Shown: positions 2,833 through 7,705 of the stretch, piece after piece
Numbering within the stretch: position 1 is the stretch's first letter
Layout: the number at the start of each line of letters is the position of its first letter
Source: Chthoniobacteraceae bacterium
Lineage (GTDB): Bacteria > Verrucomicrobiota > Verrucomicrobiia > Chthoniobacterales > Chthoniobacteraceae
Reading direction: 5' to 3'
Length of the DNA stretch: 21,135 nt
NCBI GenBank assembly: GCA_031409655.1
Contig: JANNXQ010000137.1
Location: forward strand, 1 to 21,135
Notes under the pieces: model-generated
The model's database searches: none
What the model was told of the DNA's origin: nothing
Seen by the model: the letters and a program-made list of their open reading frames with translations, nothing else
Translations under genes and position numbers: made by a program

Positions 2833-2841
2833 CCGCCCACT

Positions 2842-3046
2842 TTCATCAAGAGTGACCGAGGGTTCTGGCCCGTAGAAGTCACGGCAACCGCCTGATGAAA
2901 GGATGAAGGCGGAAGGATGAAGGATGAAGAAGATGGGCGCACGAGGCGCTCTTCACTTCATCGTTCCGCCTTCATCCTTTTTCCTTTCGCCGGGGTCCAG
3001 GTGCCAAATCCAGCCCGAGGCGCGCAAGCGTCGAGGGGAAGATGAA
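2842..3046 (+). promoter_or_regulatory. SAM-I (S-box) riboswitch aptamer with an enlarged P3
   Basis: P1 TTCATC (2842-2847) pairs with GATGAA (3041-3046). ATCAAGAG; P2 GTGAC..GAGGG-TTCTGG-CCC..GTCAC; GGCAACC (2883-2889)...GGTGCC-AAAT-CCAG (3000-3013); pseudoknot CTGG/CCAG; P4 with a GCAA loop. Confidence 0.92.
2893..2988. repeat. Heptamer-repeat hairpin element 1 (GGATGAA units) inside riboswitch P3
   Basis: Left arm GGATGAA GGCGGAA GGATGAA GGATGAA (2901-2928). Right arm TTCATCG TTCCGCC TTCATCC TTTTTCC (2957-2984). Confidence 0.85.
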
Positions 3047-3127
3047 TGCAGGCAAGTTCCGCGCGGCTCGCAACCCCGGCACCGTCTTTGCACTCATTGG
3101 AAATATGATCCTTGGTGGGAGTGCAAA
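3041..3127 (+). promoter_or_regulatory. Riboswitch expression platform: RBS-sequestering hairpin with anti-sequestrator
   Basis: TTTGCACTC (3087-3095) and GAGTGCAAA (3119-3127) form a perfect 9-bp inverted repeat overlapping the GGGAG RBS before ATG 3132. GATGAATGCAGG (3041-3052) can alternatively pair with TTTGCACTCATT. Confidence 0.7.
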
Positions 3128-3131
3128 ACCT

Positions 3132-4394
3132 ATGGACAAACCGTCGCCCTATTTCTCGAATCTGAAGTGCCGCGAGTGCGGACGCCTTTACCCCAAACAG
3201 GCCATCCATGTCTGCGACTACGACTTTGGCCCGCTGGAGGCGGCCTATGACTATGAGGCCATCCGTGCGGTAATGACGCGGGCGGCGATCGAATCGCGGC
3301 CGCAGTCGATGTGGCGCTATCGCGAGCTGCTGCCGATCGATGGCGAACCGACGGTGGGTACGCAGGTTGGCTTCACGCCGCTGGTGAAAGCGGATCGGCT
3401 GGCGAAAGTGCTGGGCATCCGCGAGCTGTATATCAAGAACGACACCGTCAACTACCCGACGCTGAGCTTTAAGGATCGCGTGGTTTCGGTGGCGCTGAGC
3501 CGGGCGCGCGAGCTGGGCTTTTCGGTGGTGGCGTGTGCCTCGACGGGCAATCTGGCTAACTCCGTGGCGGCGAATGCGGCGAGCGTGGGGCTGAAGAGCT
3601 ACGTGCTCATCCCGGCGGATCTGGAGCAGGGGAAGGTGCTGGGGTCGCTGGTCTACGGGACGAATGTCATCGCCATCCACGGCGCCTACGATCAGGTGAA
3701 CCGGTTGTGTTCGGAGATCGCTGGGAAGTACGGCTGGGGTTTTGTGAATGTGAATTTGCGCCCTTATTACGCAGAGGGCTCGAAGACGATGGGCTTTGAG
3801 ATCGCGGAGCAACTCGGCTGGCGGCTGCCGCGGCATACGGTGATCCCGATGGCGTCGGGTTCGCTGCTCACGAAAATTCACAAGTCTTACAAGGAGTTCA
3901 TCCACCTCGGGTTGGTGGAGAAAAGCGCCTTCAGTGTGCATGGGTCGCAGGCGACGGGCTGTTCGCCGATTTCCGAAGCGCGGAAAAAGGGCACGGACAT
4001 CGTGAAGCCCGTGCCGAAGCCGAACACGATCGCCAAGTCCCTCGCCATCGGGACGCCCGCGGATGGTTACTACGCGATTCACTCGATGAAGGAGACCGGC
4101 GGCACGGCGGAAGACGCGACGGACGAAGAGATCGTCGAAGGTATCAAGCTGCTCGCGGAGCACGAGGGCATCTTCGCCGAAACCGCCGGCGGCGTGACTG
4201 TCGCCTGTGCGAGGAAGCTCATCGCGAACGGCTCCATCCCGCGCGGCGACAGTGCCGTGCTCTGCATTACCGGCCATGGGCTGAAGACGCAGGAGGCGAT
4301 CGTCGGGAAGTGCGGCGAGCCGCGGACCATCGCGCCAAGCTTGCGGGAATTTGAAGAGCAGATCTACAACGTGGACACCGCCGCCGCCACCTGA
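3132..4394 (+). CDS. thrC: Threonine-synthase-like fold-type II PLP enzyme; context suggests homocysteine/methionine synthesis
   Basis: N-terminal CRECG..CDYD, GFTPL, PTLSFKDR (PLP Lys), ASTGN, EGSKT, GIFAETAGG, ITGHGLK. Start moved to ATG 3132 because there is an RBS at ~3117-3121 and the upstream ORF part overlaps the riboswitch. Confidence 0.88.
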   Translation: MDKPSPYFSNLKCRECGRLYPKQAIHVCDYDFGPLEAAYDYEAIRAVMTRAAIESRPQSMWRYRELLPIDGEPTVGTQVGFTPLVKADRLAKVLGIRELYIKNDTVNYPTLSFKDRVVSVALSRARELGFSVVACASTGNLANSVAANAASVGLKSYVLIPADLEQGKVLGSLVYGTNVIAIHGAYDQVNRLCSEIAGKYGWGFVNVNLRPYYAEGSKTMGFEIAEQLGWRLPRHTVIPMASGSLLTKIHKSYKEFIHLGLVEKSAFSVHGSQATGCSPISEARKKGTDIVKPVPKPNTIAKSLAIGTPADGYYAIHSMKETGGTAEDATDEEIVEGIKLLAEHEGIFAETAGGVTVACARKLIANGSIPRGDSAVLCITGHGLKTQEAIVGKCGEPRTIAPSLREFEEQIYNVDTAAAT

Positions 4395-4402
4395 ACCTCT
4401 GC

Positions 4403-4490
4403 GTGAATGGTGATCGGTGATTGGTGGATCGACTTCCGCCTGCCGTCCGCGCGACCATCCACGAGTTACCGATCACCGATCACCATTCAC
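4403..4490. repeat. Heptamer-repeat hairpin element 2 (GTGATCG units), intergenic
   Basis: GTGAATG GTGATCG GTGATTG GTGGATC ... CATCCAC GAGTTAC CGATCAC CGATCAC CATTCAC. 4403-4421 and 4472-4490 form a perfect 19-bp inverted repeat. Confidence 0.88.
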
Positions 4491-4502
4491 ATCCGATCCC
4501 CA

Positions 4503-4775
4503 ATGCCCTCCGTCCTCATCCCCACACCCCTCCGCAAGCTCACCAACGAACTGGAAACCGTCAGCGCCGCCGGCGCGAATATCGGCGAACTGCTCGATAA
4601 TCTCGACGCGGCTTTTCCCGGCCTCAAAGACCGCATCTGCGACGAAGCCGGCAATGTCCGCCGCTTCGTGAATATCTTCGTCAACGGGGAGGATATTCGC
4701 TTTCTCGAAGAGAAGGCCACGCCAGTGAAGGACGCGGACGAGATCAGCATCGTGCCAGCGATTGCCGGCGGCTAG
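4503..4775 (+). CDS. MoaD/ThiS/CysO-family ubiquitin-fold sulfur carrier protein
   Basis: MPSVLIPTPLRKLT...RRFVNIFVNGEDIRF...SIVPAIAGG*, 90 aa with a free C-terminal GG. The longer ORF call (4407) only translates the repeat. Confidence 0.92.
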   Translation: MPSVLIPTPLRKLTNELETVSAAGANIGELLDNLDAAFPGLKDRICDEAGNVRRFVNIFVNGEDIRFLEEKATPVKDADEISIVPAIAGG

Positions 4776-4799
4776 AGGCCGGCGGAACGCAATTCTCCT

Positions 4800-5045
4800 A
4801 TGGAAGAAAAACAACGCCTCTGGCTCATGTTTCCCGCGCGGCTGATCACGCAGCCCGTGGTCTGGGAACTCGCGCAAAAATTCAAGGTCGTGACCAACGT
4901 GCGGCAAGCCAGCGTGACCGATGAGATCGGCATCGTCTCGCTTTCGCTGGGCGGCGAACGTGACGAAATTAAAAGGGCGATCAAGTGGCTCGAAGAGACC
5001 GGGGTCAAGGTGGAGCCAGTGGAGATCAATACGATCGAAGGCTGA
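4800..5045 (+). CDS. Stand-alone NIL-domain protein
   Basis: 81 aa: LMFP..ITQPVVWELAQKFKVVTNVRQA...LSLGG...AIKWLEETGVKVE, matching the NIL (MetN C-terminal-like) pattern. Confidence 0.82.
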   Translation: MEEKQRLWLMFPARLITQPVVWELAQKFKVVTNVRQASVTDEIGIVSLSLGGERDEIKRAIKWLEETGVKVEPVEINTIEG

Positions 5046-5050
5046 CGGGC

Positions 5051-5169
5051 CCCCGGGAGCGCCACCATCCCGTGCGGTAGTCTGTGGTCTGCGCGCAGCG
5101 CGCCCAACGAGGGAATGGCGCTGCGCGCGTTTGTTCGGACGGCCGCACGGGACGGCGGCGCTCCCGGGG
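5051..5169. repeat. REP/REPIN-like palindromic element, copy A, between convergent genes
   Basis: Outer arms 5051-5078 and 5142-5169 are 25/28 complementary. Inner perfect 11-bp inverted repeat at 5091-5101 / 5118-5128. Confidence 0.85.
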
Positions 5170-5170
5170 A

Positions 5171-7705
5171 TTAAAACTCCACCGGCGGCGGTGGGTCGAT
5201 TTTGATGGTTGTATCGACGGTCTGCACGGTGCCGGCTTGTTCGAGCGGTCGCACGGGTTCCGCGCGGCGCACCTCGATTTCCTTTTCCACCTCCGGCGTC
5301 TCGACGGGTGCCGGGATTTCCTTCGCGCTTTGCACGGGTGCCATCTGGCCGTTGAGCTGTTTCATGGCGATCAAGTTACTGATCGCCTGGCTGGAGTTGT
5401 AAGGATCTTCGCCAAGCACCGTGGGCGCGTTCAGCACGATGGGCGTATGGGCCGCCACGTTGACGGCGAGAGACGCCCGCGGCCATTCGGCACTCGGGAT
5501 GACTTTGACAAAGCTCTGAGGCGCGAACGTCCCGCTGTGATATTCGCAACCCCGCTTCGGCGCCTGTTCCTCGGTGCAGATCTCGAAGTAAGTGGTGCGG
5601 CGCTGGATGGTCTCTCCGGTCTCGCCGTTTTGGGCGGTCTCGACGCACTTGTCCGTCGCAAGCATGCCAGAGGCCGAGCAGATCTCGCATTTGAGCAGGC
5701 CCTTTGGTTCGGGGATTTCCTGCGCCTTGTAGTTGGCGAAGGTCGCCTTCATGACGTTCACCCAAATGGGGAGGGCGATGTCCTTGCTGAAGGCACCACG
5801 GTAGATGGGATGGGGCTTGTCAAAACCGGCCCACACGCCGCAGGTCACGGCACTCGAGTAACCGACGAACCAAGTGTCGGTGAAATTGTAAGCGGTGCCC
5901 GTCTTGCCTCCGAGTGGGAAGCGCTTCAGGCCGAGTTCCGTGAAAGTGGTATCGGCGGTGCCGCGCTCGAGCACATCGGCGAGGCAGCTATGCACTTCGT
6001 AAGCGGTGGTCGGTTTGAGCACGCGCTTCATGGGCGTGCGGCCTTGGAAAATCACTTTACCGTCCTTGGACTCGATGTGGTCGATGATGAAGGGTTTCTC
6101 CGGTCGCGTGCCGAGATTGGGGAAAAGGGTGTAAGCGGTCGTTAGCTCCATGAGGTTCACCTCACTGCTGCCGAGATAGGTCGCCGGGAAGGGGCGAAGA
6201 GGGCTTTCGATGCCAGCCTCCTTGGCGAGTGGGACCACCTTATCAAGGCCGGTCATCATGCCCATCAGCACCGTAGCCCCATTCTTTGATTTCATGAGCG
6301 CGGTGCGCGCGGAGATTGTGCCTTCGTATTTGTTGTCCACGCGCTCGGGCCCCCATTCGCCGAGGATCCCGGTCGTCCCACCGATCATGACTTTGCGATT
6401 TTCAAAGACCTCGTCCTTTAAAACCGTGCCGGGGAAATGGCCGCGCTCGAAGGCGGCCGCATAGACGATCGGCTTGAAGGCGGTCCCGGGTGGACGTTGC
6501 GAAGTCAGCGCGCGGTCGTACTCGCTGTGCTGAAACTCGCGACCTCCGACGAGCGTTAAAATTCCGCCCGTCGCATTGTCGAGCGCCACGATCGCGCCTT
6601 GTAAATACTCAGGCGTGGGGAGCGGCGGGATGTCGGCCGCATCCGGTGCCGCCAGCTTTCGCTCACGCGCCCGGAACTGCTGGTCGTAGTCCGAGAAGGT
6701 CGCACCTTCAAAACCCTCATGCCGCTCGACGGTGGCGAGCTGATCGCGGAGCGCCTGCTCCGCCTTTTTCTGCAGCTCCCCATCGATCGTCGTGTGAATC
6801 CGGAGGCCGTCGCTGATCGCTGAGTCGCGACCGAACTGCGCGATGACCTGCTGCGCGACGACGCTGAGCGCATACGATTCCTGATGGATCTGCTGCCGAT
6901 TTTTTACGAAAAACTCCTGGGTGATCGTGGCGTCGTATTCGGCCTTGGTGATGCTCCCGAGTTCGAGCATTCGACCGAGGACAAAGTTGCGCTGTTCGAG
7001 ACAAGCCTGGCGGTTCTTCCACGGCGCGAGATTGTTCGGGCTCTTGAGCATTCCGGCCAAGGCAGCGGCTTCGGAGAGGTTCACGTCCAGCGCGCGCTTG
7101 CCGAAATAGCCGCGGGCCGCCGCCTCCACTCCGTAGAAGCCTGAGCCGAAGAAGACACGGTTCAGGTAGAACTCGAGGATCTTCGCTTTGTCGTGACGCT
7201 TCTCGATTTCGCGGGCGACGAAGATTTCGAGCAGCTTCCGATGGTAGCCGCGGTCGTTGCTGGGGAGTTCGTCGGGGAAGGAGTTGCGGGCGAGCTGCTG
7301 AGTGAGCGTGCTCGCGCCCTGGCGGGTGCGTCCGGCCCGGTAGTTCTTCACCATCGCGCGGATGATGCCCTGATAGTCCACTCCAGAATGTTGATAGAAG
7401 CGGGTGTCTTCTGCGGCGACGACGGCCCGCAGAAGTTCGGGCGAAATCTTGTCCAGCGGCACCTTGTCGCGGTTCTGGATGAAGATGCGCCCGAGGACCG
7501 CGCCGGCGCGGTCCAGGATCACGCTGGCAGACTCCATCTCGCTGAGCTCGCGGTAGTCGTAAGCCGACGCGCGTTCCTCCCATTTGCTTTTCTCCATCCA
7601 CGCCCAGGTAAAGGCGACGATGAGCAGGCTCGCGATCAAGGCTAGGGGGATCCATAGCCATGGGCGGCGATAGAAGGCGGTGCGGTTTTGCTTAAGGTTC
7701 CACAT
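5171..7705 (-). CDS. mrcA: Class A penicillin-binding protein (PBP1A; transglycosylase plus transpeptidase)
   Basis: N-terminal TM helix; EDTRFYQHSGVD, GASTLTQQL, YLNRVFFG; transpeptidase motifs GTAFKP, SKN, KTGT; Cys-rich C-terminal extension. Confidence 0.92.
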   Translation of the reverse strand: MWNLKQNRTAFYRRPWLWIPLALIASLLIVAFTWAWMEKSKWEERASAYDYRELSEMESASVILDRAGAVLGRIFIQNRDKVPLDKISPELLRAVVAAEDTRFYQHSGVDYQGIIRAMVKNYRAGRTRQGASTLTQQLARNSFPDELPSNDRGYHRKLLEIFVAREIEKRHDKAKILEFYLNRVFFGSGFYGVEAAARGYFGKRALDVNLSEAAALAGMLKSPNNLAPWKNRQACLEQRNFVLGRMLELGSITKAEYDATITQEFFVKNRQQIHQESYALSVVAQQVIAQFGRDSAISDGLRIHTTIDGELQKKAEQALRDQLATVERHEGFEGATFSDYDQQFRARERKLAAPDAADIPPLPTPEYLQGAIVALDNATGGILTLVGGREFQHSEYDRALTSQRPPGTAFKPIVYAAAFERGHFPGTVLKDEVFENRKVMIGGTTGILGEWGPERVDNKYEGTISARTALMKSKNGATVLMGMMTGLDKVVPLAKEAGIESPLRPFPATYLGSSEVNLMELTTAYTLFPNLGTRPEKPFIIDHIESKDGKVIFQGRTPMKRVLKPTTAYEVHSCLADVLERGTADTTFTELGLKRFPLGGKTGTAYNFTDTWFVGYSSAVTCGVWAGFDKPHPIYRGAFSKDIALPIWVNVMKATFANYKAQEIPEPKGLLKCEICSASGMLATDKCVETAQNGETGETIQRRTTYFEICTEEQAPKRGCEYHSGTFAPQSFVKVIPSAEWPRASLAVNVAAHTPIVLNAPTVLGEDPYNSSQAISNLIAMKQLNGQMAPVQSAKEIPAPVETPEVEKEIEVRRAEPVRPLEQAGTVQTVDTTIKIDPPPPVEF

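Follow-up and report, generated by a model that had tools for sequence, protein, structure and literature searches.

Among the closest described counterparts of the element reported here are the intervening sequences (IVSs) of 23S rRNA. The IVS of Coxiella, in the available portion of its description, occupies helix 45 of the 23S rRNA, has a 28-bp terminal stem, bears tandem heptameric repeats ahead of an S23p open reading frame (ORF) and is excised by RNase III, and the same text calls the origin and mobility of rRNA IVSs still unexplained (PMC4990558). Here we describe an S-adenosylmethionine (SAM)-I riboswitch with an insert of about 100 nt in its P3 stem, located in a 21,135-nt stretch of DNA from a Chthoniobacteraceae bacterium (phylum Verrucomicrobiota; assembly GCA_031409655.1, contig JANNXQ010000137.1, positions 1 to 21,135 of the forward strand), which is referred to throughout as the window. 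The source assembly, G000, comprises 6.85 Mb in 306 contigs; other G numbers denote the genomes of relatives and C numbers denote contigs. The insert resembles the 23S rRNA IVSs of Coxiella and Leptospira, and the ORF-less ones of Salmonella, in that a stem-loop replaces the helix tip of a structured RNA. The resemblance extends to the complementary termini and to an arm with heptameric repeats in tandem, and a PF05635 gene lies in the loop of full-size members of the GGATGAA family to which the insert belongs. The insert differs in that it occupies the stem of an mRNA-leader riboswitch and not rRNA, its ORF is absent and its heptad is not that of the Coxiella repeat.

Long, non-conserved stem-loops that occupy fixed sites and leave the core undisturbed are a described property of riboswitches, according to the available text of PMC2258182. 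The present aptamer is like SAM-I riboswitches with such a 'variable insertion' in its full-length match, its four-way junction, its place before a methionine-pathway operon and its core-sparing stem-loop, and unlike them in that the occupant is a copy of a dispersed repeat and the same stem holds several heptamer families in related species. Dispersed heptanucleotide families of Geobacter metallireducens occur as intergenic arrays in many copies, with four to five heptamers in tandem, and some are drawn paired as hairpins (PMC2700814), and G-rich heptamer repeats are described for Xanthomonas and Nostoc (available part of PMC4692102). These families share with ours the multicopy intergenic arrays of tandem heptamers at gene borders; their heptad sequences and phyla are different, and the accessible portions of the two reports neither place one in a riboswitch nor tie one to PF05635. 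Repetitive extragenic palindromic elements (REP/REPIN), which are mobilised by RAYT transposases, are likewise short, dispersed and mostly intergenic palindromes, whereas the insert family has tandem-heptad arms and centres that are unrelated between copies. Rickettsia palindromic elements, also small palindromic repeats, persist within genes that remain functional and are known mainly from protein-coding ones; their sequence is unrelated to the GGATGAA insert, which sits in a riboswitch stem. In the literature searched we found no description of a repeat or IVS element inside a riboswitch, nor of a SAM-I P3 stem filled by dispersed heptamer families.

We consider it probable that the riboswitch carries a tolerated passenger, namely a gene-less IVS-type heptamer hairpin at the tip of P3, and that the likeness of this hairpin to P1 is a by-product of its repeat unit rather than an adaptation. 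The riboswitch would control translation of a MetM/MetO-type homocysteine-synthesis operon, and the tip of its P3 carries a heptamer-arm palindrome that is dispersed over the genome, here in a copy without a gene; arms of the same kind enclose PF05635 genes elsewhere. The insert would then fold into its own hairpin of ~35 bp and only lengthen P3. During transcription the P1 5' strand would pair transiently with the first repeat, and since the 3' arm of the insert should displace this pairing before the P1 3' strand has been made, the capture would have no lasting consequence. The status of tolerated passenger is the one that we regard as most likely for the insert. A broader story thereby replaces that of a riboswitch mimicking its own P1, in that repeats akin to rRNA intervening sequences would use a riboswitch stem as a landing site.

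The aptamer and the insert in its P3 stem

An earlier note on this DNA had read a SAM-I aptamer at 2842-3046 from the sequence and had proposed a search with the Rfam SAM model. That search returned a match to RF00162 (SAM-I) at 2840-3048 on the + strand (60.6 bits against a gathering score of 44.4; E 4.7e-12) with an alignment that covers model positions 1-108, that is, the whole model. This is the same object as the aptamer of the note, which was 2 nt shorter at each end, and it is the sole RF00162 match in the 6.85-Mb assembly. Relative to the model, the cmscan alignment contains insertions of 98 nt in the P3 loop (2896-2993), in agreement with the P3 insert of ~100 nt that had been reported, and of 12 nt in the P4 loop. 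The P1-P4 four-way junction and the conserved core nucleotides are present in this alignment, in which the conserved blocks read AUC..AGAG, GAGGG..GGCCC, GCAACC, GGUGCCAA.UCC and GAAGAUGA, and three pairs are non-canonical, one in P1 and two in P4.

The same alignment places the P1 5' strand CTTTCATC at 2840-2847, where it pairs with the P1 3' strand GATGAATG at 3041-3048 with a U-U mismatch at 2841/3047, the P2 hairpin at 2852-2882 and the base of P3 at 2883-2892 (5' side, GGCAACCGCC) and 2989-3005 (3' side, GCCGGGGTCCAGGTGCC); the P4 hairpin with its GCAA loop, at 3009-3040, was assigned from cmscan and the constrained fold together. The P2-loop CUGG at 2865-2868 is complementary, as read from the sequence, to the J3/4 CCAG at 3010-3013, a pairing that we take to be the SAM-I family pseudoknot. 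A fold constrained to the native (Rfam) structure has an energy of -94.6 kcal/mol compared with -97.1 kcal/mol for the unconstrained minimum, and P1, P2 and the insert hairpin are present in both folds. Because the conserved core positions all align and the native fold lies within 2.5 kcal/mol of the minimum, we infer that the RNA of 2840-3048 is a SAM-I riboswitch that still binds SAM.

It could be argued instead that the insertion disabled the riboswitch and that the locus is a decaying relic, a view to which the U-U mismatch in P1 lends itself, as does an RF00162 score that ranks third from the bottom of the 33 matches listed for 41 relatives. This score is nonetheless 16 bits above the cut-off with all 108 model positions aligned, and the core, the pseudoknot partners and the base of P3 are intact. 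The two insert-free orthologues from the same genus score only 4-9 bits more (64.5 and 69.4 bits), so that the suggestion of the earlier note that the insert may lower the covariance-model score is borne out by a few bits only. Inserts at the P3 site are, in addition, common in the family, and the element is the sole SAM-I element of its genome and stands in a conserved place. We therefore regard a relic as highly improbable. For annotation, inserts of this kind double the length of an aptamer at a cost of 4-9 bits, and stricter thresholds or length filters would miss them.

The insert itself comprises a purine arm (TGATGAA AGGATGAA GGCGGAA GGATGAA GGATGAA GAAGA) at 2893-2930, recognised by an inverted-repeat scan, the fold and a census of heptads, a G+C-rich centre at 2931-2955 and a pyrimidine arm (CTTCATCG TTCCGCC TTCATCC TTTTTCCTTTC) at 2956-2988, recognised by inverted repeats, all on the + strand. 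The centre is predicted to fold into a small stem (2937-2940/2946-2949) and varies between copies of the family. The predicted pairs between the arms are 2897-2914/2964-2981, 2916-2922/2956-2962 and 2925-2930/2950-2955; folded alone, the insert gives a helix of ~35 bp with small interruptions only, at -54.2 kcal/mol, and the hairpin is almost purely Watson-Crick, with G-U accounting for 2 of 40 bp.

The heptamer-arm family and the P3 site in relatives

A palindrome of the form (GGATGAA)n - variable centre - (TTCATCC)n is present in about 40 copies in the genome, and the insert is one of them. A blastn search with 2893-2991 returned 40 other loci on 32 contigs, the top one on C107 (82.8% over 87 nt), and the four-heptad block at 2901-2928 is identical to C107:14172-14199. 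By regular-expression census, G000 contains 25 + 25 arrays of at least three GGATGAA-type heptads and 20 hairpin pairs in which the purine array precedes the pyrimidine array within 120 nt, compared with none in the opposite order; the centres of these 20 hairpin-type copies measure 20-59 nt and show no sequence relationship to one another. The 21-mer (GGATGAA)3, allowing up to 2 mismatches, matched G000 at 101 positions versus 1 for the reversed control. A comparable repetitiveness was seen in four sediment metagenome runs from one study, where the depth summed over contigs was 3093-6521 across 2892-2939 versus about 3-60 elsewhere, a jump of ~100-fold accompanied by many unrelated flanks. 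No RNA run was listed among those that contain the locus. A second dispersed family, based on GTTGAGA, has 48 matches in G000 and 250 in the same-genus genome G002, counts for which the reversed-pattern control is invalid, being a rotation of the same repeat.

Gene-less GGATGAA hairpins lie close to the starts of genes. An ATG-led ORF of at least 100 amino acids starts 0-20 nt outside an end in 12 of 19 such hairpins and on both sides in 3 of 19; for random 80-nt windows, an ATG-led ORF stands at an end in 14.8% and at both ends in 0.8%. Hairpins directly before start codons were noted at C237:30120-30200, C39:37510-37609, C187:29854-29919 and C195:83661-83750, and several of the hairpins fill the entire gap between divergent genes, so that it is hard to see where promoters or a Shine-Dalgarno sequence would fit. 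A REPIN/RAYT origin of the family was considered and rejected: none of the 13 Y1_Tnp (RAYT) matches in G000 has a GGATGAA- or GTTGAGA-type array within 900 nt, and the sole tandem run beside a transposase (C94:4839-4859, by C94:4448-4777) is unrelated.

The affiliation of the insert is suggested by a different class of gene. PF05635, the '23S rRNA intervening-sequence protein' (S23p) family, has 10 matches in G000, and three of these genes (C12:83780-84085, C184:12269-12568 and C63:521-814) lie between inverted GGATGAA arrays, in cassettes that span C12:83707-84130, C184:12233-12638 and C63:456-863 with their arms; a fourth PF05635 locus (C144:34251-34712) has the same layout with a different heptad. 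In the three GGATGAA cassettes the ORF starts with ATG AAG GA(T/C) inside the last two heptads of the purine arm (encoding MKDE in C12 and C63, MKDF in C184), and the heptad is the source of the ATG as well as of a GGA-rich ribosome-binding site. The P3 insert, as read from its sequence, contains ATG AAG GAT GAA GAA from 2917, as in the cassettes, and CAC-TTCATC again forms the junction that leads into the pyrimidine arm. These shared features give the insert the look of a miniature IVS-type cassette that has lost its gene by internal deletion. No PF05635 gene lies between the arms of the insert, which enclose the 25-nt centre only, and since three copies with the same arms do contain one, the insert is classed as a gene-less derivative and not as a full cassette. 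Tandem heptamers flank 6 of the 28 PF05635 loci in five relatives on both sides and a further 7 on one side, with a heptad particular to each. The G000 assembly lacks a 23S rRNA gene, and the insert sits at the P3 tip of a riboswitch, not at a 23S helix tip. Riboswitches split by a gene-bearing cassette were also sought; the anchor-less loci that this yielded (5 of 80, or 4 with one requirement dropped) proved to be contig-edge truncations or point variants.

Closely related genomes provide empty versions of the P3 site. In G001 and G003, of the same genus, whose MetM-like proteins (encoded by the gene downstream of the riboswitch) are 92% and 90% identical to that of the window, the flanks are identical and P3 is a 27-nt stem capped by GCAA. 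In contigs from two metagenome runs (X2 and X3), 23 other letters, which form a short GCAA-capped tip, stand between 2891 and 2991, and in the insert-free metagenome contigs the flanks are conserved up to 2891 and from 2991. The insert is thus absent from the closest relatives as well as from co-occurring strains. These comparisons, together with the almost pure Watson-Crick pairing of the hairpin, suggest that the P3 insert is dispensable and recent. In G002, by comparison, P3 is 92 nt long and consists of GTTGAGA heptads, in a genome with the 250 GTTGAGA matches mentioned above and 0 GGATGAA matches.

Enlarged P3 stems occur more widely. The median span of 124 full-length SAM-I matches from the same taxonomic family, a count that leaves out an 85-nt second match in G187 and two below-cut-off matches, is 132 nt, which makes the ~110 nt that had been quoted for a typical aptamer roughly right; 26 of the 124 span at least 165 nt and 9 at least 200 nt. 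Loci from the protein scan in genomes already in the G set were counted once. The second G187 match (G187:C225:1733-1817; 46.1 bits) is unusually short and lies apart from a normal copy. Inspection of all 26 long aptamers revealed heptamer-palindrome extensions of P3 in about 20, of the types GTTGAGA, GGATGAA, GGTTGAA, GGCGGAA and GTTGAAA, with at least five types within one genus (g39). As about 20 of the 26 long aptamers bear such varied heptamer extensions in the same stem, the tip of P3 appears to be a recurrent and permissive landing or growth site. A small, alignable RNA with filled and empty sites in close relatives thus offers a natural system in which to follow the choice of helix tips and the rate of gain and loss.

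Whether these extensions are kept as RNA may be reflected in their folds. The sense strand folds better than the antisense strand in 15 of 21 P3 extensions, a count uncorrected for relatedness, which hints weakly at maintenance of the extension as a helix of RNA. The extreme case is the G227 aptamer (L143, C248:569-770), for which the sense strand folds at -59.2 kcal/mol versus -33.0 kcal/mol for the antisense strand, with 11 G-U among 42 pairs. Its arms, (GGTTGAA)4 and (TTTCGCC)4, can pair in the sense strand only, by way of G-U wobbles, and in the predicted fold this extension is an RNA-level helix and not a DNA palindrome.

Likeness to P1 and points against neutrality

The earlier note had emphasised that the insert contains four copies of GATGAA and two of TTCATC identical to the strands of P1. 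These positions are correct: GATGAA lies at 2894, 2902, 2916 and 2923 in the insert and at 3041 in the P1 3' strand, and TTCATC, present at 2842 as part of the P1 5' strand, recurs in the insert at 2957 and 2971, while 2893-2901 is a perfect 9-nt complement of 2840-2848 and may be called a 'pseudo-P1'. Each hexamer occurs at ~0.52 per kb genome-wide, so that a 96-nt stretch should contain ~0.05 copies. Chance falls far short of explaining the clustering, which exists because GATGAA/TTCATC is the unit of the tandem heptad GGATGAA/TTCATCC. What did not survive is the claim that the insert mimics its own P1 specifically. The heptamer-arm palindrome of which the insert is a copy is dispersed over the genome, with 40 further loci, and the unit GGATGAA serves elsewhere as the ribosome-binding site and start codon of PF05635 genes. 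Enumeration shows, moreover, that of all heptads made up of one U plus six purines, 25% can pair 8/8 (counting G-U) with a P1 5' strand such as this one (common forms CUUUCAUC or CUCUUAUC), and P1 mimicry is therefore unremarkable, being expected of a purine-rich arm opposite a pyrimidine-rich P1. The 3' side of the SAM-I P1 is itself like a ribosome-binding site (Barrick and Breaker, available text of PMC2258182), which may explain the likeness between the heptad and P1.

The repeats had also been proposed to offer decoy partners that the P1 5' strand meets first during transcription, and such an encounter is indeed predicted, as growing-chain minimum-energy folds place 2840-2848 on 2893-2901 (9 bp) for transcript ends from 2904 to 2976. 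In its full form this proposal makes the P1-like repeats co-transcriptional decoys, with the P1 5' strand held by the purine arm and handed back later, thus tuning folding kinetics or the need for SAM. Transient capture is predicted in most long-P3 relatives (29/52 steps in G066, 25/42 in G002, 16/43 in G091, 15/38 in G008 and 11/44 in G005) and, among aptamers shorter than 165 nt, in 4 of 26 (7/26 steps in G025, 4/29 in G013, 2/34 in G082 and 1/18 in G023; none in the other 22), a comparison that has no shuffled control and in which longer inserts have more chance pairings. The capture in the present aptamer, however, is predicted to be over by transcript end 2982, ~60 nt before the P1 3' strand (3041-3048) exists, and true P1 is predicted to form at transcript ends 3054-3060. 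The hexamers, as the unit of a dispersed element, recur in about 40 other places, and the closest relatives do without any insert. Control at the level of translation, in addition, can re-equilibrate after transcription. A decoy function is, in our judgement, quite unlikely. The long-stem variants nevertheless supply natural aptamers with built-in P1 competitors and matched insert-free controls, with which ideas about the kinetic folding of riboswitches can be addressed.

Several observations weigh against the preferred interpretation, that of a riboswitch with a tolerated passenger. The predicted capture spans ~75 nt of transcription, and the duplexes involved (-10.8 kcal/mol for the pseudo-P1 and -10.0 kcal/mol for a canonical heptad) are stronger than true P1 (-6.6 kcal/mol), so that capture may have a kinetic effect. 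With respect to an origin by insertion, a comparison with miniature inverted-repeat transposable elements, which have terminal inverted repeats plus a target-site duplication, showed arms that are inverted repeats and GCC at both ends of the insert (2890-2892 and 2989-2991), but the empty sites of the relatives have a different tip, and no duplication could be deduced. With respect to the downstream step, the leader hairpin at 3087-3127, the presumed site of control, is present in the minimum-energy fold irrespective of the availability of the P1 3' strand. The most pointed of these observations concerns the GTTGA-type P3 inserts, of which 9 of 17 contain a GATGAG heptad, equal in sequence to the P1 3' strand and usually in second position, whereas a GATGA heptad occurs in 2 of 44 GTTGA-type arrays genome-wide in G000. 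The A of this heptad is predicted to be unpaired in all nine carriers (G087, G066, G091, G117, G274, G252, G208, G212 and G247), and such a frequency hints at selection for a P1-like word, which would favour a function in folding such as that of a decoy. Counts of GATGAGRGTTGAGR and GTTGAGRGTTGAGR are 2 and 125 in G002, 5 and 53 in G091, 1 and 64 in G117, 3 and 36 in G066, and 1 and 0 in G087, and the sole GATGAGRGTTGAGR of the G117 genome sits in its riboswitch, versus the 64 canonical pairs.

Against such selection, four of the nine GATGAG cases come from one genus, and GATGAG is found beyond riboswitches. An intergenic copy in G091, between what appear to be ATP-synthase genes, matches the 31-nt arm exactly and the partner arm almost completely, and the heptad therefore appears to mark a sub-family of the repeat rather than the riboswitch. 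A GATGAG/GTTGAGA hairpin lies in the same intergenic spacer in G091 (L155, G091:C121:9453-9706) and G087 (L161, G087:C138:48509-48762), which belong to different taxonomic families; the genes flanking this spacer look like those for the ATP synthase beta and epsilon subunits. The recurrence of a hairpin in one spacer of two taxonomic families suggests that some heptamer hairpins are old and have been kept in place. A copy in the ATP-synthase spacer of G000 was not found with the pattern used.

A further departure from neutrality could arise from RNA processing. The helix of ~35 bp, predicted to have small interruptions only, might make the leader a substrate for RNase III, which would cut in P3 and leave either a working aptamer in two pieces or an mRNA with an altered half-life. 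The arms of the insert are of the same family as those of the PF05635/IVS-type cassettes. RNase III is described as cutting 28-bp IVS stems in Coxiella, Salmonella and Leptospira, among others (PMC4990558), and G000 encodes an RNase III (C78:30454-31104; 229.8 bits). Given this likeness of the duplex to stems that are cut, and the presence of the enzyme, the insert may by analogy be non-neutral for the mRNA. The choice of sites by RNase III, however, hangs on features outside the fold model used, and cutting the leader of a biosynthetic operon might carry a cost, yet such inserts persist in 26 of 124 relatives, which accords equally with harmlessness and with use. We hold such cutting to be unlikely, if less so than a decoy function. 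A bolder proposal would unite several of these strands: rRNA-IVS-type elements would colonise helix tips of structured RNAs generally and would have entered the SAM-I P3 repeatedly in several heptad flavours, a two-piece riboswitch cut by RNase III would still sense SAM, and the P1-like heptad (GATGAA/GATGAG, unpaired in many lineages) would be kept as a chaperone for P1 folding. This we advance tentatively, as doubtful but a little less so than cutting by RNase III taken as the explanation of the insert, and we retain the tolerated passenger as the preferred interpretation.

The regulated operon and its leader

The aptamer ends 84 nt upstream of a gene for a threonine-synthase-like pyridoxal phosphate enzyme (MetM-like; 3132-4394, + strand; Pfam PALP 7.5e-65; NCBIfam thrC 275 bits). 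Next downstream is a gene for a small sulfur carrier of the ThiS/MoaD type (MetO-like; 4407-4775, + strand; Pfam ThiS 3.1e-17 over residues 36-122; NCBIfam SAMP1/MoaD), the real start of which may lie later in this ORF. MetM is a homocysteine synthase that depends on MetO thiocarboxylate, and MetO is its sulfur carrier (PMC13759103, Table 2, in the part available). By likeness of kind, the gene pair in the window is likely to be a MetM/MetO-type homocysteine-synthesis operon. A SAM-I riboswitch precedes the same ThrC-like gene at all 31 of the relatives' loci examined, and the best protein matches of the MetM-like gene are in Chthoniobacteraceae and Chthoniobacterales metagenome-assembled genomes. 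The start codon of this gene is the ATG at 3132, from which begins an N-terminus, MDKPSPYF, that is kept in relatives; ATG 3042, inside P1, was rejected as a start, being out of frame or closed in most relatives.

Between the aptamer and this start codon lies a leader hairpin at 3087-3127 on the + strand, an inverted repeat with 9/9 bp between TTTGCACTC (3087-3095) and GAGTGCAAA (3119-3127). The purine-rich GGTGGGAG at 3114-3121, which precedes the start codon by 10 nt, is covered by this hairpin, and we presume the hairpin to be the sequestor of the Shine-Dalgarno sequence. The GCACTC/GAGTGC of the hairpin is invariant in all five aligned relatives, hence the absence of any covariation. No terminator-like site was found on the + strand between 2650 and 3250; given this and the hairpin over GGTGGGAG, control by the riboswitch is expected to act on translation. 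An anti-sequestor pairing of 3042-3049 with 3090-3097 (-8.2 kcal/mol) was considered as a link between P1 and the hairpin and proved unsupported, as the 3087-3127 hairpin (-13.7 kcal/mol) forms with the P1 3' strand held or not.

Upstream of the aptamer, TTGACG and TACTTT separated by a 17-nt spacer (2804-2832) would put the transcript start at ~2839-2840, the first base of P1; the second hexamer matches at 3 of 6 positions, and the pair was not called by a consensus promoter scan. Without obvious tie to the riboswitch are the neighbouring genes for a class II aldolase-domain protein (1399-2697) and an FGGY sugar kinase (3-1388), which lie upstream on the - strand, and for a class A penicillin-binding protein, which lies downstream at 5171-7705, also on the - strand.

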